Shown here: piece by piece, positions 2,530 through 9,709 of the stretch | Position numbering within the stretch: the stretch's first letter is position 1 | Layout: each line of letters opens with the position of its first letter | Virus record (IMG/VR): IMGVR_UViG_2529292908_000016 | Origin: a virus | Lineage: Duplodnaviria; Heunggongvirae; Uroviricota; Caudoviricetes | Length of the DNA: 9,709 nt | Direction: 5' to 3' (one strand) | Position numbers and translations under genes: made by a program | The notes under the pieces: model-generated | Told to the model about the DNA's origin: nothing | Database searches by the model: none | The model's input: only the letters and a program-made list of their open reading frames with translations

Positions 2530-3033
2530 ATGATCAATAAAGCTACAACTCTTGACTGTCTCGAAGAACTGAAAAACCTCGGCAGCCTCATTACACTAAT
2601 AGCAAAAGCAACACCTGATGCTACGCTCTCTAGCGATATAGAGTCATGCGCAGGACTGGCATGGGATATGACAAATAGCATATCCAGAAAGCTATCGTCA
2701 GCAATGCTTTTACAGAACAAAAATTCTGCAATCAACAACCGTCTTCGCACCCAACGCGAAGCCTGCGGCTTAACAACCGCCGAACTCGCCAGGCTGCTCG
2801 ATCTCGATGAAGAAATTATCATCCAGTGGGAGAGCGGAGAGTATGAACCAACTATCAGTATGCTTATCCCACTGGCAAATATTCTTGGCTGCGATCCGAT
2901 GTGGCTGTTAACTGGTGAGGTTACTCCTCCGGAGCAACCAAAAAGTGAGGAGCAGCAACACCATGACGCATCTCAACAAGTTTGCCCCTTATCTCGCGAA
3001 GCTCTTCTGCGGAAGAACCAATACCAATGGTGA
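2530..3033 (+). CDS. XRE-family helix-turn-helix DNA-binding protein (167 aa) with an unrecognised N-terminal region of about 65 aa
   Basis: HTH_XRE signature in the C-terminal half: INNRLRTQREACGLTTAELARLLDLDEEIIIQWESGEYEPTISMLIPLANILGCDPMWLLTGE. Same strand and immediately downstream of the CI-like repressor. Confidence 0.7.
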   Translation: MINKATTLDCLEELKNLGSLITLIAKATPDATLSSDIESCAGLAWDMTNSISRKLSSAMLLQNKNSAINNRLRTQREACGLTTAELARLLDLDEEIIIQWESGEYEPTISMLIPLANILGCDPMWLLTGEVTPPEQPKSEEQQHHDASQQVCPLSREALLRKNQYQW

Positions 3034-3927: not shown

Positions 3928-4509
3928 ATGCAATACGATGAATTCCAGGCTGAAGCAACAGCCAATGGTATACGAACTGGCAGTATGACGATTGATTATC
4001 ACGACGCCATACGTCGTCTGGATGCCGGAGAATTCGATACTCCTAATGTGCGAGGTTTACGTATCCTTCAGTGTCTGGCGCAAGCCGACGAAGCAGGATT
4101 ACTGGGTAAACTTCCGGTTGAGATGAAGGTTGCTCAGTGGCGATGGTTGTATGTGACGACATTCATCAACGAAGAAGAAGACAAGAACGGCACAATTGAT
4201 ATCCTGAATGAACACGGAACAACTGAACACGCCGTGGTATATAACGGGATGTATGGGTTTATGACGATATATCCCGGCCCCATTCGATTTGCCTTACAAC
4301 AGTATATTGAATGGAATTTAATTCAAAAATACGGCGAAGCTGAAGGAATGGGAAGAGCGCTGTTTCTTTATCAGAAAATGCTCACTACTTCCCCTGATAA
4401 AGGTTTCATTCTTTCAGATATGGGGCGAGAAGGGCTTGAAATCCTTCTGGATGAAATTATTAACGAAATGAATACTCATGGCATGCAATCCGAAACAGAT
4501 ATTAAGTAA
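3928..4509 (+). CDS. Hypothetical protein (193 aa), function unknown
   Basis: GAGGAA Shine-Dalgarno 8 nt upstream of ATG at 3928; tightly spaced after the acidic-tail gene; no motif I can recognise. Confidence 0.7.
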   Translation: MQYDEFQAEATANGIRTGSMTIDYHDAIRRLDAGEFDTPNVRGLRILQCLAQADEAGLLGKLPVEMKVAQWRWLYVTTFINEEEDKNGTIDILNEHGTTEHAVVYNGMYGFMTIYPGPIRFALQQYIEWNLIQKYGEAEGMGRALFLYQKMLTTSPDKGFILSDMGREGLEILLDEIINEMNTHGMQSETDIK

Positions 4510-4519
4510 AAGGGACCAC

Positions 4520-4768
4520 ATGACCGTTATCGAGTATATCCAGGAAAATCCAGATTGCAGTAGAGAAGATATATCCCTCGCACTTGGAAGAAGCGCAACT
4601 TCTATCAGTAATGAATTATCACGGTTATTGTGGAATGGGTTAATAGTACGAACTGGAGAAAAAAACAAAACGATTCTGTACTGCGTAAACAATCTGCCGT
4701 TTGGATACAGCAATCCCCTAAGTGTTATGTTCAACCAGTTACTTAAACAGGTAAGAAATGGCAACTGA
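4520..4768 (+). CDS. Small putative winged-helix DNA-binding protein (82 aa)
   Basis: AAGGGA 5 nt upstream of ATG at 4520. Segment REDISLALGRSATSISNELSRLLWNGLIVRTGEKNKTILY is compatible with helix-turn-helix plus a beta-hairpin wing. The 3' end overlaps the next gene start by 11 nt. Confidence 0.55.
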   Translation: MTVIEYIQENPDCSREDISLALGRSATSISNELSRLLWNGLIVRTGEKNKTILYCVNNLPFGYSNPLSVMFNQLLKQVRNGN

Positions 4769-5075
4769 CTCACAACTAACCATAGAAACGGCCCTGAATG
4801 TCGGCCTGGCGCTCCTTGGTTATTTTTACATCGTGTTCTGCAGCGGACGGTGGCTGTCGCTGTTGTTCCTGAAAAAATGGAATAAACGCCGTAAGCAGGA
4901 TGAACGCCAGAAGGCAATGAATGCGTTTTCCGAAGCCTTCGGAATTGACGGCATGGAACCAGGGGATCCAGCTCGCGCAATCAGCAGAGGGGGTGTAGTA
5001 ATCCTTGTATATCGGAGTGAAGAGAAAAATGACGATCACAAAACAACGAGTAGAAAAAATCATATATCGCCATGA
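4758..5075 (+). CDS. Small membrane protein (105 aa) with one predicted transmembrane helix followed by a basic stretch
   Basis: AGGT Shine-Dalgarno before ATG at 4758. Hydrophobic segment ALNVGLALLGYFYIVFCSGRWLSLLFL followed by KKWNKRRKQDERQK. Overlaps the next predicted gene by 47 nt. Confidence 0.5.
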   Translation: MATDSQLTIETALNVGLALLGYFYIVFCSGRWLSLLFLKKWNKRRKQDERQKAMNAFSEAFGIDGMEPGDPARAISRGGVVILVYRSEEKNDDHKTTSRKNHISP

Positions 5076-5343: not shown

Positions 5344-5515
5344 CTATCAGGCACTGCGCGAGGCGGCGGAACAGGCAACGCAAGATGAATGGGTAGCATA
5401 TATTTTGCCGGGTCATAACGGCATTTATCCTGCGCGCACGTCTGAGGGTAGGCATTGTGCGGATACTTTATTGACTGGCCTGGCGTCTGTCAGGGGCGGG
5501 AGAGCATCAACATGA
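5330..5515 (+). CDS. Short ORF (61 aa) carrying an Ead/Ea22-like N-terminal module; possibly a gene fragment
   Basis: AAGGAGG plus GTG start; the first ~17 codons (MSKIDYQALREAAEQA) are paralogous to the start of the 6015..6692 gene. Stop overlaps the next ATG (ATGA). Confidence 0.4.
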   Translation: MSKIDYQALREAAEQATQDEWVAYILPGHNGIYPARTSEGRHCADTLLTGLASVRGGRAST

Positions 5516-6018
5516 GCATCAGAACCTACGCAGTGAATTGCAATGACGCATGGCTAAACACCGAAGGTGATGACATCTCCGGCTCATACGTTAAGTACAA
5601 AGACCATCAGGAAGTGGTTGCCGCTCTTGAGGCCAAGTGCGCGGCGCTGGCAGCGGAGAATGCGGGAATAAAGTCTGCAATTCCAGAATCACGGGATATT
5701 GAAGATGACAATGACAATATGGATGACGTATCTCTCGCGGAAGACTTCGGGTTCAATCATGCAATAGAACGGATGAGGAGACAGATACCTGAAACGCCAA
5801 CCACTGATGCTTTCCTGGCTGAAGTCCGGGCGCAGGGGGTGGATGCTGCTATAGAAGCTGCAAAAAATCTGGTGGCCCAAGAATATGAGTATAAGGATTT
5901 CAAAGCGGCGCAGAGTGATTGCTGTATGTACCCTGGTTCAGACCTGGTAGGGAAGGTTGAAATGACTGAGTGGTTAGTTGACTTTGCTGCCCAGCTTCGC
6001 AAAGGAGGCAACCAGTGA
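5512..6018 (+). CDS. Hypothetical protein (168 aa) with an Ala-rich predicted coiled-coil segment
   Basis: GGGAGAG Shine-Dalgarno 7 nt before the first ATG (5512) of track ORF 5455..6018. Segment HQEVVAALEAKCAALAAENAGIKSAIPE. Stop TGA overlaps the GTG start of the next gene (GTGA). Confidence 0.6.
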   Translation: MSIRTYAVNCNDAWLNTEGDDISGSYVKYKDHQEVVAALEAKCAALAAENAGIKSAIPESRDIEDDNDNMDDVSLAEDFGFNHAIERMRRQIPETPTTDAFLAEVRAQGVDAAIEAAKNLVAQEYEYKDFKAAQSDCCMYPGSDLVGKVEMTEWLVDFAAQLRKGGNQ

Positions 6019-6692
6019 GCGAAATTAATTACCAGGCACTGCGTGAGGTGGTGGAACGTGCAATTCCAGCAATGGAACGCCTGTTAATGTTGCCAGTTGA
6101 TGATGATTTGTTAAGTGAACAGGAACTTAAAGATTACGGTGTGGATATTGATGCGCTCAACGCCTTCAAATTTCTGACCGGACCAGAAACCGTGCTGGCA
6201 CTGCTGGATGAGATCAACGCATTAGAGGAAACGCGTATCAACGATGTTTGCCGTATTGCGGAACTAACAAAACAACTGGAGTTGGCAAAATCAAAACTCA
6301 ACGAGCAGCGTGAGTATTACGAAGGTGTTATCTCGGATGGAAGTAAGCGTATTGCTGAACTGGAGAAAAGCGAAGAGCAACTCATTAACGAGCGTGACCA
6401 TGCTGAGTCTGCTTTAGCTGATATGTATTTTGCAGCAACCGGGGATAGGCCTGAGTGGAGTAACTGGTTCGGTTTTTCAGATGCAGTAGATGCCGTAGTT
6501 GACAGAATTGCTGATTTAGAAGCTAAACAGCCATCGCCAGTAGTACCTGAAGGACTGATTAAAGCGGTGCGTTTTTATGAGCAGGTAAAACGTGAGAACC
6601 CGCCAGTCGAAACCGGAGCATGGAAAGACGCTGTTGACTGGGTGCTCAAAGAGGCTTGCCAGGCTGTAAACATTGGCATCAAAGGAGAGTGA
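6015..6692 (+). CDS. Ead/Ea22-like family prophage protein (225 aa), coiled-coil rich
   Basis: AAGGAGG 7 nt before GTG at 6015. N-terminus MSEINYQALREVVERA and the coiled-coil middle (LTKQLELAKSKLNEQREYYEG...ELEKSEEQLINER) match my recollection of the Ea22-like family. This is a recalled family assignment, not a search result. Confidence 0.65.
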   Translation: MSEINYQALREVVERAIPAMERLLMLPVDDDLLSEQELKDYGVDIDALNAFKFLTGPETVLALLDEINALEETRINDVCRIAELTKQLELAKSKLNEQREYYEGVISDGSKRIAELEKSEEQLINERDHAESALADMYFAATGDRPEWSNWFGFSDAVDAVVDRIADLEAKQPSPVVPEGLIKAVRFYEQVKRENPPVETGAWKDAVDWVLKEACQAVNIGIKGE

Positions 6693-6694
6693 GG

Positions 6695-6808
6695 ATGTTC
6701 AATAATTTGCCTGGTACTGGTTTTTCGTTGTTTTCGGTGTCATTTGCGCCGTTATTGGTTGGGCAGTTATTGAGTCCATTCTTTGGCTGCTTTCTTTCAT
6801 TCACATAA
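6695..6808 (+). CDS. Small hydrophobic peptide ORF (37 aa): MFNNLPGTGFSLFSVSFAPLLVGQLLSPFFGCFLSFT
   Basis: ATG 2 nt after the stop of the 6015..6692 gene, with AGGAGA at 6683..6688. Composition is strongly hydrophobic, consistent with a single membrane-spanning peptide. Below the track size cutoff. Confidence 0.3.
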   Translation: MFNNLPGTGFSLFSVSFAPLLVGQLLSPFFGCFLSFT

Positions 6809-6829
6809 CTATTGGTTGAGAACTGACCC

Positions 6830-7621
6830 ATGACCACTTTAACCGACAAAGAACTGATTAAAGAAATCAAAGAGCGTATAGGCAGCCTGGACATCCGAGA
6901 CAATATTGAGCGTCGGGCTTATGAAATTGCTCTGGCATCGCTGGAAGCAGAGGCAGTTATGTTCTGTATATCAGGACAAAATGTAGATTCAGAAGAACAT
7001 GTATCAACCAGCAAAGCGGTTGTTGATGCCTGGGTTGAAGAATGGAATCAGGTTGACAGAAGTCCTGGCGAACCACTGTACAAAACTATGCCACTCTACT
7101 ATCACGCTGCCTTGCCAGCGCCGGTAGTGCCGGAAGAAGCAACTCCGGAAAACGTAGAAATGCTCTCTGGCTATGTTTCCACGTACAAATTAACCGATAG
7201 CGAGCGCGATATTGCTGCCGAAATATGGAACGCCTGCCGCACCGCCATGCTTCAGTCCGGAAACTTTCGGGAAAGCAAGAATTCGTCAACCAATAATTTT
7301 CGGGAAATCCCGGAAGCGTCAACCAGCTCTCCGGTAACTCCGGCTCTTCTGCCTGGTGGTTTCACCATTGAGGAGGCGAAGGAATTACATGAAGACCTGG
7401 TACGCAGCCACATAAGCAAGGCCTTAAGTGGCGAAAAGATGAAAAAGAAAGATCGCGATGCTGATTTGCGCTGGATTCATGGCGTTATAGTTCAGGCAGC
7501 GTGGTTTGTAAAAGCATCACTGGAGCAGAATGCACTATCGGGCAACTCTCCGGTAACTCCGGATGGTTGGATAAGCTGTAGTGAGCGAATGCCGGACGAC
7601 AGGCAGGAGGTGAATCAATGA
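6830..7621 (+). CDS. Hypothetical prophage protein (263 aa) with internal repeats; C-terminus resembles the start of a DUF551-type domain
   Basis: Long ORF in the operon. Contains two exact 17-bp direct repeats encoding SPVTP and a duplicated NFRE motif. Ends with GWISCSERMPDDRQEVNQ, which resembles the W-[IV]-S-x-x-[DE]-R-[LM]-P opening of DUF551 as I recall it, cut short by the stop. Confidence 0.7.
   Translation: MTTLTDKELIKEIKERIGSLDIRDNIERRAYEIALASLEAEAVMFCISGQNVDSEEHVSTSKAVVDAWVEEWNQVDRSPGEPLYKTMPLYYHAALPAPVVPEEATPENVEMLSGYVSTYKLTDSERDIAAEIWNACRTAMLQSGNFRESKNSSTNNFREIPEASTSSPVTPALLPGGFTIEEAKELHEDLVRSHISKALSGEKMKKKDRDADLRWIHGVIVQAAWFVKASLEQNALSGNSPVTPDGWISCSERMPDDRQEVNQ
7327..7343 (+). 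repeat. 17-bp exact direct repeat CTCTCCGGTAACTCCGG, copy 1 (inside CDS)
   Basis: Identical 17-mer found again at 7546..7562; the 219-bp offset keeps both copies in the same reading frame (SPVTP). Confidence 0.9.
7546..7562 (+). repeat. 17-bp exact direct repeat CTCTCCGGTAACTCCGG, copy 2 (inside CDS)
   Basis: See copy 1 at 7327..7343. Confidence 0.9.
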
Positions 7622-7701
7622 GCTGGCCTGATGCAATCGTAACTCTGGGGGTGGTATTCGCAGCAGCGTTTGTTGTGTTCTCGATTTGTCGATGGGGATA
7701 A
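7618..7701 (+). CDS. Small hydrophobic peptide ORF (27 aa): MSWPDAIVTLGVVFAAAFVVFSICRWG
   Basis: Canonical GGAGG (7606..7610) 7 nt before ATG at 7618. The ATG overlaps the upstream gene's stop (ATGA) and its own stop is 4 nt before the next ATG. One predicted transmembrane span. Below the track size cutoff. Confidence 0.4.
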   Translation: MSWPDAIVTLGVVFAAAFVVFSICRWG

Positions 7702-7705
7702 CCAC

Positions 7706-7948
7706 ATGTTCGCTTTGATTCAACGCGGTCAGATATACACGGACAGAGCCGGATACCCCGTGGTGATTACTCGCATCACTGAGCACTCAGTGTTCTTTCG
7801 ACGGATGGACGGACGATCCGGGCGGGTACGCATTGGTGAGTTAAACTGCCTGTTCGAACATATTGACCACCAGGAGTACCGCAAAATTCTCGCGGACACT
7901 GAGCAGGAAAAGCACCTGAAAAAATTACGAGCCATAAAAAGGAAGTAA
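7706..7948 (+). CDS. Small prophage protein (80 aa), possibly DUF4222-like
   Basis: First ATG of track ORF 7670..7948, with GGGGA 7 nt upstream. MFALIQRGQIYTDRAGYPVVITRITEHSVFFRRMDGRSGRVRIGELNCLFEHID resembles small beta-rich prophage proteins found next to xis/int. The family name is from memory and unverified. Confidence 0.55.
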   Translation: MFALIQRGQIYTDRAGYPVVITRITEHSVFFRRMDGRSGRVRIGELNCLFEHIDHQEYRKILADTEQEKHLKKLRAIKRK

Positions 7949-7951
7949 AGA

Positions 7952-8098
7952 ATGAATAAAGCATTTGAACGATGGGTCCACCAGCGTTACGGCAATCGCT
8001 ATGACCTGACGCGAGATGTTGACGGCTTCTACTGTCGTGAAGTTGTGAAGCGAATGTTTGAAGTGTGTTGCCACTGCCGTGGGCTGAGTGTTGTGTGA
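7952..8098 (+). CDS. Small Cys-rich protein (48 aa): MNKAFERWVHQRYGNRYDLTRDVDGFYCREVVKRMFEVCCHCRGLSVV
   Basis: AAGGAAG Shine-Dalgarno before ATG at 7952, which lies 3 nt after the upstream stop. Contains C-x9-C-C-x-C, a possible metal-binding cluster. Ends 8 nt before the excisionase-like gene. Below the track size cutoff. Confidence 0.4.
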   Translation: MNKAFERWVHQRYGNRYDLTRDVDGFYCREVVKRMFEVCCHCRGLSVV

Positions 8099-8106
8099 GG
8101 TAATAC

Positions 8107-8343
8107 ATGGGCAATGTGATTCAACTGGCTCCCAATGAATGGGTTTGTGAAAGCGTTCTTATCGCAATTACCGGGCTCAAACCAGGCACAATTCTTCGGG
8201 CCCGGAAAGAATGCTGGATGGTTGGAAGAGAGTATATTCACGTATCACCAGACGGTAATCCAAAGCCTTCCAGTGAATGTATGTATAACAGAAAAGCAAT
8301 AGATGCCTGGGTCGCCTCAATGAAAAACAAACAACCCAGGTGA
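8107..8343 (+). CDS. xis: Excisionase-like small DNA-binding protein (78 aa)
   Basis: GAGGT Shine-Dalgarno 5 nt before ATG at 8107. Lies immediately upstream of the integrase on the same strand, with size and basic/aromatic composition typical of winged-helix excisionases. The call rests on position and composition, not a verified domain hit. Confidence 0.65.
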   Translation: MGNVIQLAPNEWVCESVLIAITGLKPGTILRARKECWMVGREYIHVSPDGNPKPSSECMYNRKAIDAWVASMKNKQPR

Positions 8344-8398
8344 TTTAATATCATGAAATATGTAAGCTCGTATCGCTCTTGGGCGTCTGGAGGTATCG

Positions 8399-9709
8399 AT
8401 GGATAAAGTCAAATATCCAACAGGCGTCGAAAACCACGGCGGCACATTACGCATCTGGTTTAATTTTAAAGGTAAACGTGTCAGGGAAAATCTTGGTGTC
8501 CCTGACACTGCCAAGAACAGGAAGATCGCCGGGGAACTGCGGACATCAGTATGTTTTGCCATCCGCACAGGAAGCTTTGATTATGCTGCACAGTTCCCTG
8601 ACTCCCCCAACCTTCAGGCTTTTGGGGTAAGTAAAAAAGAAATTACGGTGAAGGAACTTGAAGAAAAGTGGCTGGATCTGAAACGAATGGAAATCTCTGC
8701 AAATGCATTCAATCGCTATGAATCCGTTGCAAGAACGATGGTTCCGAAAATTGGAGGCAGTAGACTGGTGTCATCGGTAACCAAAGAGGAATTGCTGTAT
8801 ATCAGGAAAGATTTGCTGACCGGGTATCAGAATTCAATGAAAAACAAAGCAGCAAAAGGACGGAGCGTTGTTACTGTAAATTATTACATGACGACAATCG
8901 CTGGAATGTTTCAGTTTGCTGCAGATCACGGTTACTTAGAAGCAAATCCCTTCCAGGGAATTAAGCCTCTTAAAAGAGCCAGGGCAGAGCCAGATCCGCT
9001 AACTCGTGACGAATTTATTCGCCTGATAGATGCTTGCCGACATCAGCAGACGAAAAACCTGTGGTCATTGGCTGTGTACACAGGAATGCGTCACGGTGAA
9101 CTGGTCTCCCTGGCCTGGGAAGATATCGATCTGAAGGCAGGAACAATTACCATCAGGCGCAATTATACGAAACTTGGTGAGTTCACTCTACCGAAAACTG
9201 AAGCAAGCACAAACAGGGTTGTGCACCTTATCCAGCCCGCTATCAGTGTCCTGAAAAATCAGGCTGAAATGACAAGACTGGGTAAGCAGTACAACATCAA
9301 GGTGCAACTACGTGAATATGGACGTTCAGTGAACCATGAATGTACTTTCGTGTTTAACCCTCAAGTGGTTAGAAAAAGCGAACAGGTAGGTTTTGTCTAC
9401 AAAGTCGATTCTGTAGGTGACTCATGGGAAACAGCCATTAAGCGTGCAGGGATCAGGCATCGAAAGGCATACCAGTCACGACACACTTATGCGTGCTGGT
9501 CATTATCTGCCGGAGCAAACCCAAGCTTCATTGCCAGCCAGATGGGCCATGCAAGTGCCCAGATGGTATTCAATGTATACGGAGCATGGATGACTGACAG
9601 CAATGCAGAACAGATCGCAATGCTGAATCAGAAGCTGACAGATTATGTCCCAATGATGCCCCATAGTCACCAAAGTGACACCAGAGGCTTATTAAAATCA
9701 GTAAGTTAA
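8399..9709 (+). CDS. int: Tyrosine-type site-specific integrase (436 aa)
   Basis: GGAGG Shine-Dalgarno 5 nt before ATG at 8399. Catalytic-domain hallmarks are present: TGMRHGEL (box I Arg), SRHTYACW (H-x-x-R region) and MGHASAQMVFNVYGAW (catalytic Tyr). The N-terminus YPTGVENHGGTLRIWFNFKGKRVREN looks like an arm-type DNA-binding domain. Stop TAA is the last codon of the window. Confidence 0.9.
   Translation: MDKVKYPTGVENHGGTLRIWFNFKGKRVRENLGVPDTAKNRKIAGELRTSVCFAIRTGSFDYAAQFPDSPNLQAFGVSKKEITVKELEEKWLDLKRMEISANAFNRYESVARTMVPKIGGSRLVSSVTKEELLYIRKDLLTGYQNSMKNKAAKGRSVVTVNYYMTTIAGMFQFAADHGYLEANPFQGIKPLKRARAEPDPLTRDEFIRLIDACRHQQTKNLWSLAVYTGMRHGELVSLAWEDIDLKAGTITIRRNYTKLGEFTLPKTEASTNRVVHLIQPAISVLKNQAEMTRLGKQYNIKVQLREYGRSVNHECTFVFNPQVVRKSEQVGFVYKVDSVGDSWETAIKRAGIRHRKAYQSRHTYACWSLSAGANPSFIASQMGHASAQMVFNVYGAWMTDSNAEQIAMLNQKLTDYVPMMPHSHQSDTRGLLKSVS

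Follow-up and report, generated by a model that had tools for sequence, protein, structure and literature searches.

We report that a 27-codon open reading frame (ORF) in the early-left arm of a lambdoid prophage is, on comparative evidence, a genuine conserved coding unit under purifying selection at the amino-acid level. The ORF lies in a 9,709-nt stretch of Caudoviricetes DNA (IMG/VR virus record IMGVR_UViG_2529292908_000016), hereafter the window, at 7618..7701 on the + strand (84 nt; ATG at 7618–7620, TAA at 7699–7701), and begins at an ATGA overlap with the stop codon of a 263-aa gene. Its product, MSWPDAIVTLGVVFAAAFVVFSICRWG, is a predicted single-pass membrane microprotein, and is best read as an undescribed family of a known kind, the phage-encoded small membrane proteins. 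The whole reading that we favor, and consider rather probable from sequence comparison and analogy, is that of a coding microgene, coupled to an upstream gene of the early-left operon, whose predicted single-pass membrane peptide would modulate a membrane protein.

Conservation of the 27-codon frame

A tblastn search returned full-length matches to the peptide in 70 phage records, with 52–100% amino acid (aa) identity. In phages 933W, ArgO145, TH18 and PhiR49_2 the match begins at the same ATGA overlap as in the window, and each product is exactly 27 residues long. IMG/VR was scanned with a codon-degenerate pattern in which six residues were fixed, with no constraint on the stop or on the 17 central codons. 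At least 127 matches were obtained; among the matches listed, 125 of 127 were intact 27-codon ORFs, and no insertions or deletions were detected. Because six residues had been forced by the pattern, the retrieval was repeated with the upstream 18-mer alone. An intact 27-codon family member was present in 125 of 126 complete loci, and all residues forced earlier, W3, P4, A6, C24 and W26 among them, were kept in 119 of the 125. The homologues comprise 40 distinct peptides, with the family consensus M-(S/T)-W-P-(D/E)-A-x4-G-x3-A-x-A-(L/F)-x2-(Y/F)-S-I-C-R-W-(G/R).

Mean pairwise identity was 0.74–0.95 within the ORF and 0.39 in the first 12 nt past the stop codon. Upstream of the ORF conservation falls off beyond position −24, and the flanks vary completely. 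The conserved unit is the Shine-Dalgarno (SD) sequence plus the ORF, because the identity island ends at the SD on one side and at the stop codon on the other.

The ratio of nonsynonymous to synonymous polymorphism (pN/pS) in the sense frame was 0.33 for the entire ORF and 0.43 for codons 7–23, which the pattern had left unconstrained, and ranged from 0.85 to 1.8 in the other forward frames. Entropy was highest at codon position 3, followed by positions 1 and 2, and the substitutions had a mean BLOSUM62 score of +0.52. An antisense ORF of 30 aa (7615–7707), with a pN/pS of 0.30, was considered as the selected frame and rejected: it is the wobble-sharing mirror of the sense frame, its substitutions are non-conservative (mean BLOSUM62 −0.67), its start lies in the non-conserved flank outside the island and its orientation opposes the operon.

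Overall, 48 ORFs of at least 20 aa overlap positions 6000–8600, and a length of 27 codons alone is within chance. Since chance cannot be dismissed for one ORF of this size, its significance is carried by the comparative data. The original prediction, made from the letters of the window, had allowed that the frame might prove not to be conserved in homologues; we find that frame, length, start, stop and SD are all conserved, under purifying selection. Its proposal of a real single-transmembrane (single-TM) peptide gene coupled to the upstream gene gains support from frame conservation, from the hydropathy of the predicted product and from the ATGA junction.

Start signals, upstream partners and operon setting

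The start signals were exact in the sequence as first described, together with the coordinates of the ORF. The SD (GGAGG, 7606..7610, + strand) lies inside the last codons (Q-E-V-N-Q) of the upstream gene and is separated from the ATG by a 7-nt spacer (tgaatca). The ATGA start/stop overlap (7618..7621, + strand), in which the upstream TGA occupies 7619–7621, is a candidate junction for coupling by termination-reinitiation, and the DUF4222 gene starts with an ATG at 7706, 4 nt (ccac) past the TAA. The ribosome-binding site had been called the best in the region. Its predicted anti-SD duplex (−11.6 kcal/mol) is indeed the strongest, but it is equaled by that of the Ea22-like gene at 6015; the remaining 13 of the 15 plus-strand starts tested have a weaker SD, and the DUF4222 start has a weak one (−5.5 kcal/mol).

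A long upstream ORF (median 168 codons) terminates in ATGA in 123 of 125 loci, and a GGAGG-type motif 7–10 nt before the ATG is kept in both upstream context classes. The upstream partners themselves comprise 72 different proteins, whose C-terminal modules are of at least four unrelated kinds: a full DUF551 domain ending in HWMPLPEPPQEVNQ, the truncated DUF551 of the window, a module ending in KLPDKAMDYLERNGLISVEDILR and a coiled coil ending in NDLKNIEQEVNR. Co-variation of the peptide with its upstream partner was considered and rejected, since one identical peptide is found behind both main, unrelated tail classes.

In the window the partner is a mosaic exo-xis-type gene (6830..7621, + strand; Pfam DUF551, PHROG 5117/60). 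Its 263-aa product matches DUF551 with 24.2 bits over residues 246–261, which cover the first 16 of 68 profile positions, and this DUF551 start is joined directly to the DUF551 tail (GWISCSERMPDD followed by RQEVNQ and the stop). Relatives of about 300 aa have a complete DUF551 domain, ending in HWMPLPEPPQEVNQ; hence the 263-aa copy carries an internal deletion of the DUF551 core. The N-terminus of the protein is homologous to K-12 YfdT.

Within the DUF551 tail, the codons (PP)QEVN contain a GGAGG that acts as the SD for the next gene, whichever it is. In the window (7600–7621) this SD serves the 27-codon ORF, and in Phi24B (record L202, near 2830) it serves a GTG-start DUF1382 gene; a similar GGAG...TAATG junction is present between yfdS and yfdT of K-12 (L203, 11860–11880). 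From these sequences the 3′ end of DUF551 looks like a general coupling adaptor.

The ORF had been proposed to be translationally coupled on both sides. On the upstream side this agrees with the ATGA junctions; on the downstream side it applies to the window, but not as a conserved property. The DUF4222 gene is found at +4 nt in 31 of the 125 loci (roughly a quarter to a third), and the abundant D5-type variants have it at this distance behind all 58 copies. In about one-third of the loci (933W type) a gap of ∼154 nt is followed by mok/hok/sok, and elsewhere other genes follow. The spacing between the microgene and mok/hok/sok is near-fixed, at 153–157 nt, in 933W (L003, 1501–1950) and ∼40 IMG/VR loci.

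All genes of the window are on the + strand, and those from the cI-like repressor through xis-int are co-oriented. Upstream of the 263-aa gene lie the cI-like helix-turn-helix (HTH)/S24 repressor (1695–2426), an HTH protein (2530–3033), a DUF4752 gene (4758–5075) and two Ead/Ea22-like genes (about 5512–6018 and 6015–6692). Downstream of the 27-codon ORF are the context-specific DUF4222 gene (7706..7948; Pfam 8.2e-14, annotated in RefSeq), a 48-aa PHROG-3871 gene (7952–8098), a DUF1233 excisionase gene (8107–8343) and the integrase gene (8399 to the window end). No plus-strand promoter or terminator was predicted within 6500–8400. Positions 7114–8400 are 100% identical to a prophage located beside yecN/cmoA in E. 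coli 2015C-3121, and 99.8% identical to the O104:H4 outbreak strains.

A second short membrane peptide, of 37 aa, had been placed at 6695..6808, so that two such peptides would flank the 263-aa gene. At this site the relatives (L139, L140 and L005) have a 41-aa single-TM ORF, MFNNLPGTGFFVVFGVICAVIGWAVIESILWLLSFIHITIG, which ends in ITIY in TH18. The window carries a run of five T (6721–6725) where the relatives have six, that is, a 1-nt-deletion allele. The 37-aa reading is therefore frameshifted: only residues 1–10 are shared and residues 11–37 are out of frame, and the true C-terminal part of the 41-aa ORF lies in another frame of the window, ending at TGA 6817–6819. The deletion could reflect a pseudogene or a homopolymer sequencing error. 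The idea of two micro-ORFs in one operon is retained, but the 37-aa sequence itself is not.

The 41-aa ORF starts 2 nt past the Ea22-like stop, has its SD (AAAGGAGAG) in the last codons of that gene, is unannotated in RefSeq and is present in 34 of 5426 genomes at ≥80% coverage. As the 27-aa gene, it is an unannotated single-TM ORF with a strong SD behind an Ea22-like gene (tail ending in IKGE), but it is unrelated in sequence, far rarer and frameshifted in the window. The ea22 gene of phage lambda has the same IKGE tail and no 41-aa ORF.

Predicted product, proposed role and rival explanations

All 35 variants analyzed (35/35) are hydrophobic across residues 6–24, with a mean Kyte-Doolittle hydropathy of 1.38–2.76, and the N-terminal half of the hydrophobic core is the more variable one. 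This one hydrophobic stretch is flanked by interfacial or charged residues, namely the near-invariant W3 and W26, and D/E5 and R25. We infer a 27-residue peptide that crosses the inner membrane once, with a Trp at either interface, and whose orientation would be N-out/C-in, as suggested by the acidic N-cap and by the Arg close to the C-terminus.

The steps by which such a gene might act are as follows. The microgene, without a promoter of its own, would share the early-left (pL-type) transcript with the preceding Ea22-like/DUF551 gene, and would be translated by termination-reinitiation from the upstream stop codon. Given a shared early transcript and reinitiation, the peptide would appear soon after infection or induction, at a level that follows the upstream gene. 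With its acidic N-cap, M-(S/T)-W-P-(D/E)-A, ∼18 hydrophobic residues and a C-terminal (Y/F)-S-I-C-R-W-(G/R), it would span the inner membrane. By analogy, the peptide might bind a host or phage protein in the cytoplasmic membrane as a small accessory modulator, which is the weakest step of the proposal, and its role would be dispensable host manipulation of the exo-xis type rather than that of a lytic toxin or a structural protein.

Four other explanations (toxin, relay, linker and frameshift anchor) were weighed, and even jointly we consider them fairly unlikely. The one that survives best, itself improbable, is that the peptide is a membrane-damaging toxin similar to Hok, TisB, DinQ or ShoB, or a holin-like depolariser, which would make the inner membrane permeable and so arrest or kill the cell, or would be an abortive or addiction factor. 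The size of 27 aa and the hydrophobicity are as in type I toxins, and about one-third of the loci, 933W among them, have mok/hok/sok downstream. However, hok is not present in most loci; the strong SD and the coupling to an expressed early gene contrast with the tightly repressed translation of type I toxins; and the peptide has a single Arg, its C-terminus not showing the amphipathic or cationic character that is usual in TisB, DinQ and Hok. No minus-strand (antisense) promoter was predicted over the 27-codon ORF, no Rfam match, and thus no Rfam antitoxin RNA, was found near it, and the RNA fold signal on it was not significant (z = +0.59). With a strong SD and these three negative results, the gene does not have the attributes of a type I toxin-antitoxin member.

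Still less probable is that the ORF acts as a translational relay, passing ribosomes to the downstream gene, with a functionless peptide. The arrangement in the window, with ATGA upstream, a 4-nt gap downstream and a weak DUF4222 SD, fits a relay, as does the constant DUF4222 neighbor of the 58 D5-type copies. Most loci, however, have no gene start beside the stop, but the ∼154-nt gap or unrelated genes; the amino acids are under purifying selection with conservative substitutions, and length and end motifs are invariant. A relay would not need a fixed hydrophobic sequence of 27 codons.

A non-coding mosaic boundary, recombination linker or DNA/RNA element, in which the ORF is incidental, would account for a short conserved island amid highly mosaic flanks, but it is very improbable given that the island has the SD and the stop codon as its edges, most variation falls on third codon positions, low pN/pS is confined to the sense frame and its wobble-sharing mirror, ∼250 loci show no indels and almost no stops, and neither an Rfam match nor an RNA structure signal was found. 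We place equally low the proposal that a programmed −1 frameshift appends the segment to the Ea22-like/DUF551 protein, as its C-terminal membrane anchor and not as a free peptide: the ORF is in the −1 frame of the upstream gene with an SD-like GGAGG just upstream, and some database entries (P0017, P0018, P0021, P0023 and, as GGESM..., P0012) are N-terminally extended in frame, but no slippery X XXY YYZ heptamer occurs within the last 12 upstream codons, the −1 frame runs into an in-frame TGA (7582–7584) 11 codons upstream, homologues conserve the ATG start, the mutually unrelated upstream tails offer no common frameshift site, and the extended entries go back to frames left open upstream where a contig ends, or to the choice of the gene caller.

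Several observations weigh against a coupled gene for a membrane-protein modulator, which remains our preferred reading. The sampled sequences share ancestry and represent few lineages, so that the counts given above exceed the number of independent observations, and six residues were imposed by the first retrieval pattern. A conserved helical face (GxxxA-type) was not supported, with a helical conservation moment that was not significant (P = 0.60), and no interface can therefore be named. The charge bias behind the predicted topology is weak, with one acidic and one basic residue, and the proposed mode of action is based only on analogy with other small membrane proteins. The ORF is absent from lambda, Phi24B and K-12 CPS-53 (YfdS region), the part of K-12 that was scanned, which makes the gene dispensable. 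Finally, the peptide is absent from the accessible parts of the supplements to the Sakai RIBOseq study (Hücker 2017, PMC5597208) and to a survey of small ORFs (smORFs) in Enterobacteriaceae (Fesenko 2024, PMC11188072).

A further-reaching version of the modulator reading is decidedly tentative, and we regard it as doubtful. In it the peptide would be the first of an undescribed class of membrane microproteins, made early by phages and directed at one particular machine of the host inner membrane, and would contribute to the exo-xis phenotypes. The target may be, for example, a component of the divisome or of transport, or the membrane effector of a system that defends against phages, and the affected phenotypes may be the lysis-lysogeny decision or induction in Shiga toxin (Stx) phages of the 933W/Sakai type. 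The pairing of an Ea22-like gene with a coupled TM micro-ORF, which occurs twice in the operon with unrelated peptides, may then represent a functional two-gene design and not coincidence.

Distribution, annotation and related systems

The gene was detected in at least 1008 of 5426 complete E. coli genomes (about 19%), with up to four copies per genome; about 150 of roughly 1350 E. coli copies are plasmid-borne, on plasmids of 80–96 kb. One such plasmid was inspected, pC5104 of E. coli C51 (L137). It is a P1-like phage-plasmid, with phd/doc, pdcA and a homologue of DNA polymerase III (Pol III) theta as P1-like markers, and its microgene (4016–4099) lies within an Ea22/DUF551 accessory cluster. 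Carriers include the Stx phages 933W and VT2-Sakai. Two copies ∼2.5 kb apart were observed on the minus strand of L174 (1930 and 4412), and two copies in one genome also in L127/L132 and L128/L130.

A scan of one genome per species restricted the gene to Escherichia/Shigella. Matches outside this group were rejected: a 431-bp contig of Xanthomonas pisi DSM 18956 (L129) encodes a peptide identical to that of 933W, and a 369-bp contig of Acinetobacter idrijaensis MII (L133) one identical to an E. coli phage variant, both most likely assembly contamination; those in Planctomyces and Xanthobacter are chance matches with early stops.

The ORF had been described as unannotated. This applies to RefSeq, where the identical locus has an unannotated gap of 83 nt and no annotation was found at 30 of 30 sampled matches, and to the records of phages PhiR5_1, 933W, ArgO145, TH18 and PhiR49_2. 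It does not apply to a sister variant, which a few GenBank genomes list as a "hypothetical/bacteriophage protein" of 27 aa (e.g., AOM45384.1). The record of Stx2 converting phage II (L138) shows a 250-aa "ORF C38" on the minus strand (701–1450), antisense to both the Ea22-like gene and the microgene. ORF C38 was rejected as the peptide: it appears to be an all-ORF over-annotation, and the 27-codon gene itself is unannotated there.

The peptide matched no family significantly in Pfam, PHROGs, NCBIfam, PADLOC or Rfam. The only family signal came from one variant, which scored 14.7 bits against KdpF (TIGR02115), below the cut-off of 26.85; the context is a prophage early operon, not kdpFABC, and we do not assign the peptide to KdpF. 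Among 1.84 billion representative proteins, eight sequences were recovered, each a member of the peptide's own family; the longer ones are N-terminal extensions or stop-loss read-throughs.

Three other assignments were rejected. Membership in DUF551 (PF04448) is contradicted by the lack of a Pfam hit for the peptide, by upstream genes without DUF551 and by the DUF551 genes of Phi24B and K-12, which have no peptide. A fusion with 121-aa DUF551 proteins, with which the peptide shares a 90% cluster, was discarded since the peptide sequence is not within those proteins; the cluster is a clustering artefact, possibly caused by contig-end partial entries such as P0012. A lipoprotein (Rz1/Cor-like; lipobox [LVI][ASTVI][GAS]C) was likewise discarded: the sole Cys, at position 24, has Ile before it at −1 (F-S-I-C), and cleavage would leave three residues.

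In the literature searched, neither the peptide sequence nor a TM ORF in the exo-xis region was found; the exo-xis papers do not mention the peptide, and a review of phage small proteins contains no analogue. Since lambda, Phi24B and CPS-53 lack the ORF, the ribosome profiling (Ribo-seq) literature on lambda and K-12 and the Phi24B deletion studies cannot be used.

If translated, a gene of about 19% of complete E. coli genomes is absent from RefSeq annotation and from the family databases searched. Its carriers are medically relevant, including the O104:H4 outbreak lineage and the Stx phages 933W and VT2-Sakai. Because the gene lies in the exo-xis region, where deletions alter lysogenization and Stx-prophage induction, phenotypes attributed to its neighbors in phages of the 933W type may partly be its own. 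In Stx phages ea22 is reported as the most strongly transcribed exo-xis gene (PMC10834534). The gene exemplifies a phage microprotein whose expression an ATGA junction links to the mosaic Ea22-like gene in front of it, whatever that gene is, and such overlapping microgenes are systematically missed by gene-caller limits of ∼30 codons and by "strictly intergenic" smORF screens. What it adds is no new principle, but one specific gene that the annotations of medically relevant prophages lack.

Among known systems, KdpF, AcrZ, MgtS, MgrB and CydX are also one-TM microproteins (27–50 aa), often missed by annotation, and act by binding a larger membrane protein, which provides the analogy for the proposed role. 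The peptide gene differs in that it lies in a phage early operon and does not adjoin a cognate host transporter or sensor gene, and no real homology was found. The type I toxins (Hok/Gef, TisB, DinQ of 27 aa, ShoB and Ibs) are also small hydrophobic inner-membrane peptides, and hok/sok is often downstream of the ORF. Unlike them, the 27-aa ORF has a strong SD, is coupled, has no predicted antisense RNA and encodes a non-amphipathic, nearly uncharged peptide.

The Pf3 coat protein, which has 44 aa and serves a filamentous phage as a structural protein of its virion, has no sequence similarity to the 27-aa peptide. YidC substrates of the Pf3 coat type nevertheless share with it a short acidic N-tail, one helix, a basic residue on the C-side and the lack of a signal peptide, and this charge pattern would predict the same topology and the YidC insertion route for the peptide.

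A similar setting is that of the exo-xis accessory proteins. Those described are soluble, none has a TM segment, and the phages in which they were studied (lambda and Phi24B) lack the 27-codon ORF. However, Orf60a, Orf61, Orf63, Ea8.5 and Ea22 occupy the same position, between the recombination/immunity genes and xis-int, and, as proposed for the 27-aa gene, they are early, pL-driven, dispensable and mosaic, and adjoin Ea22-like genes (PMC10834534, PMC10789677).

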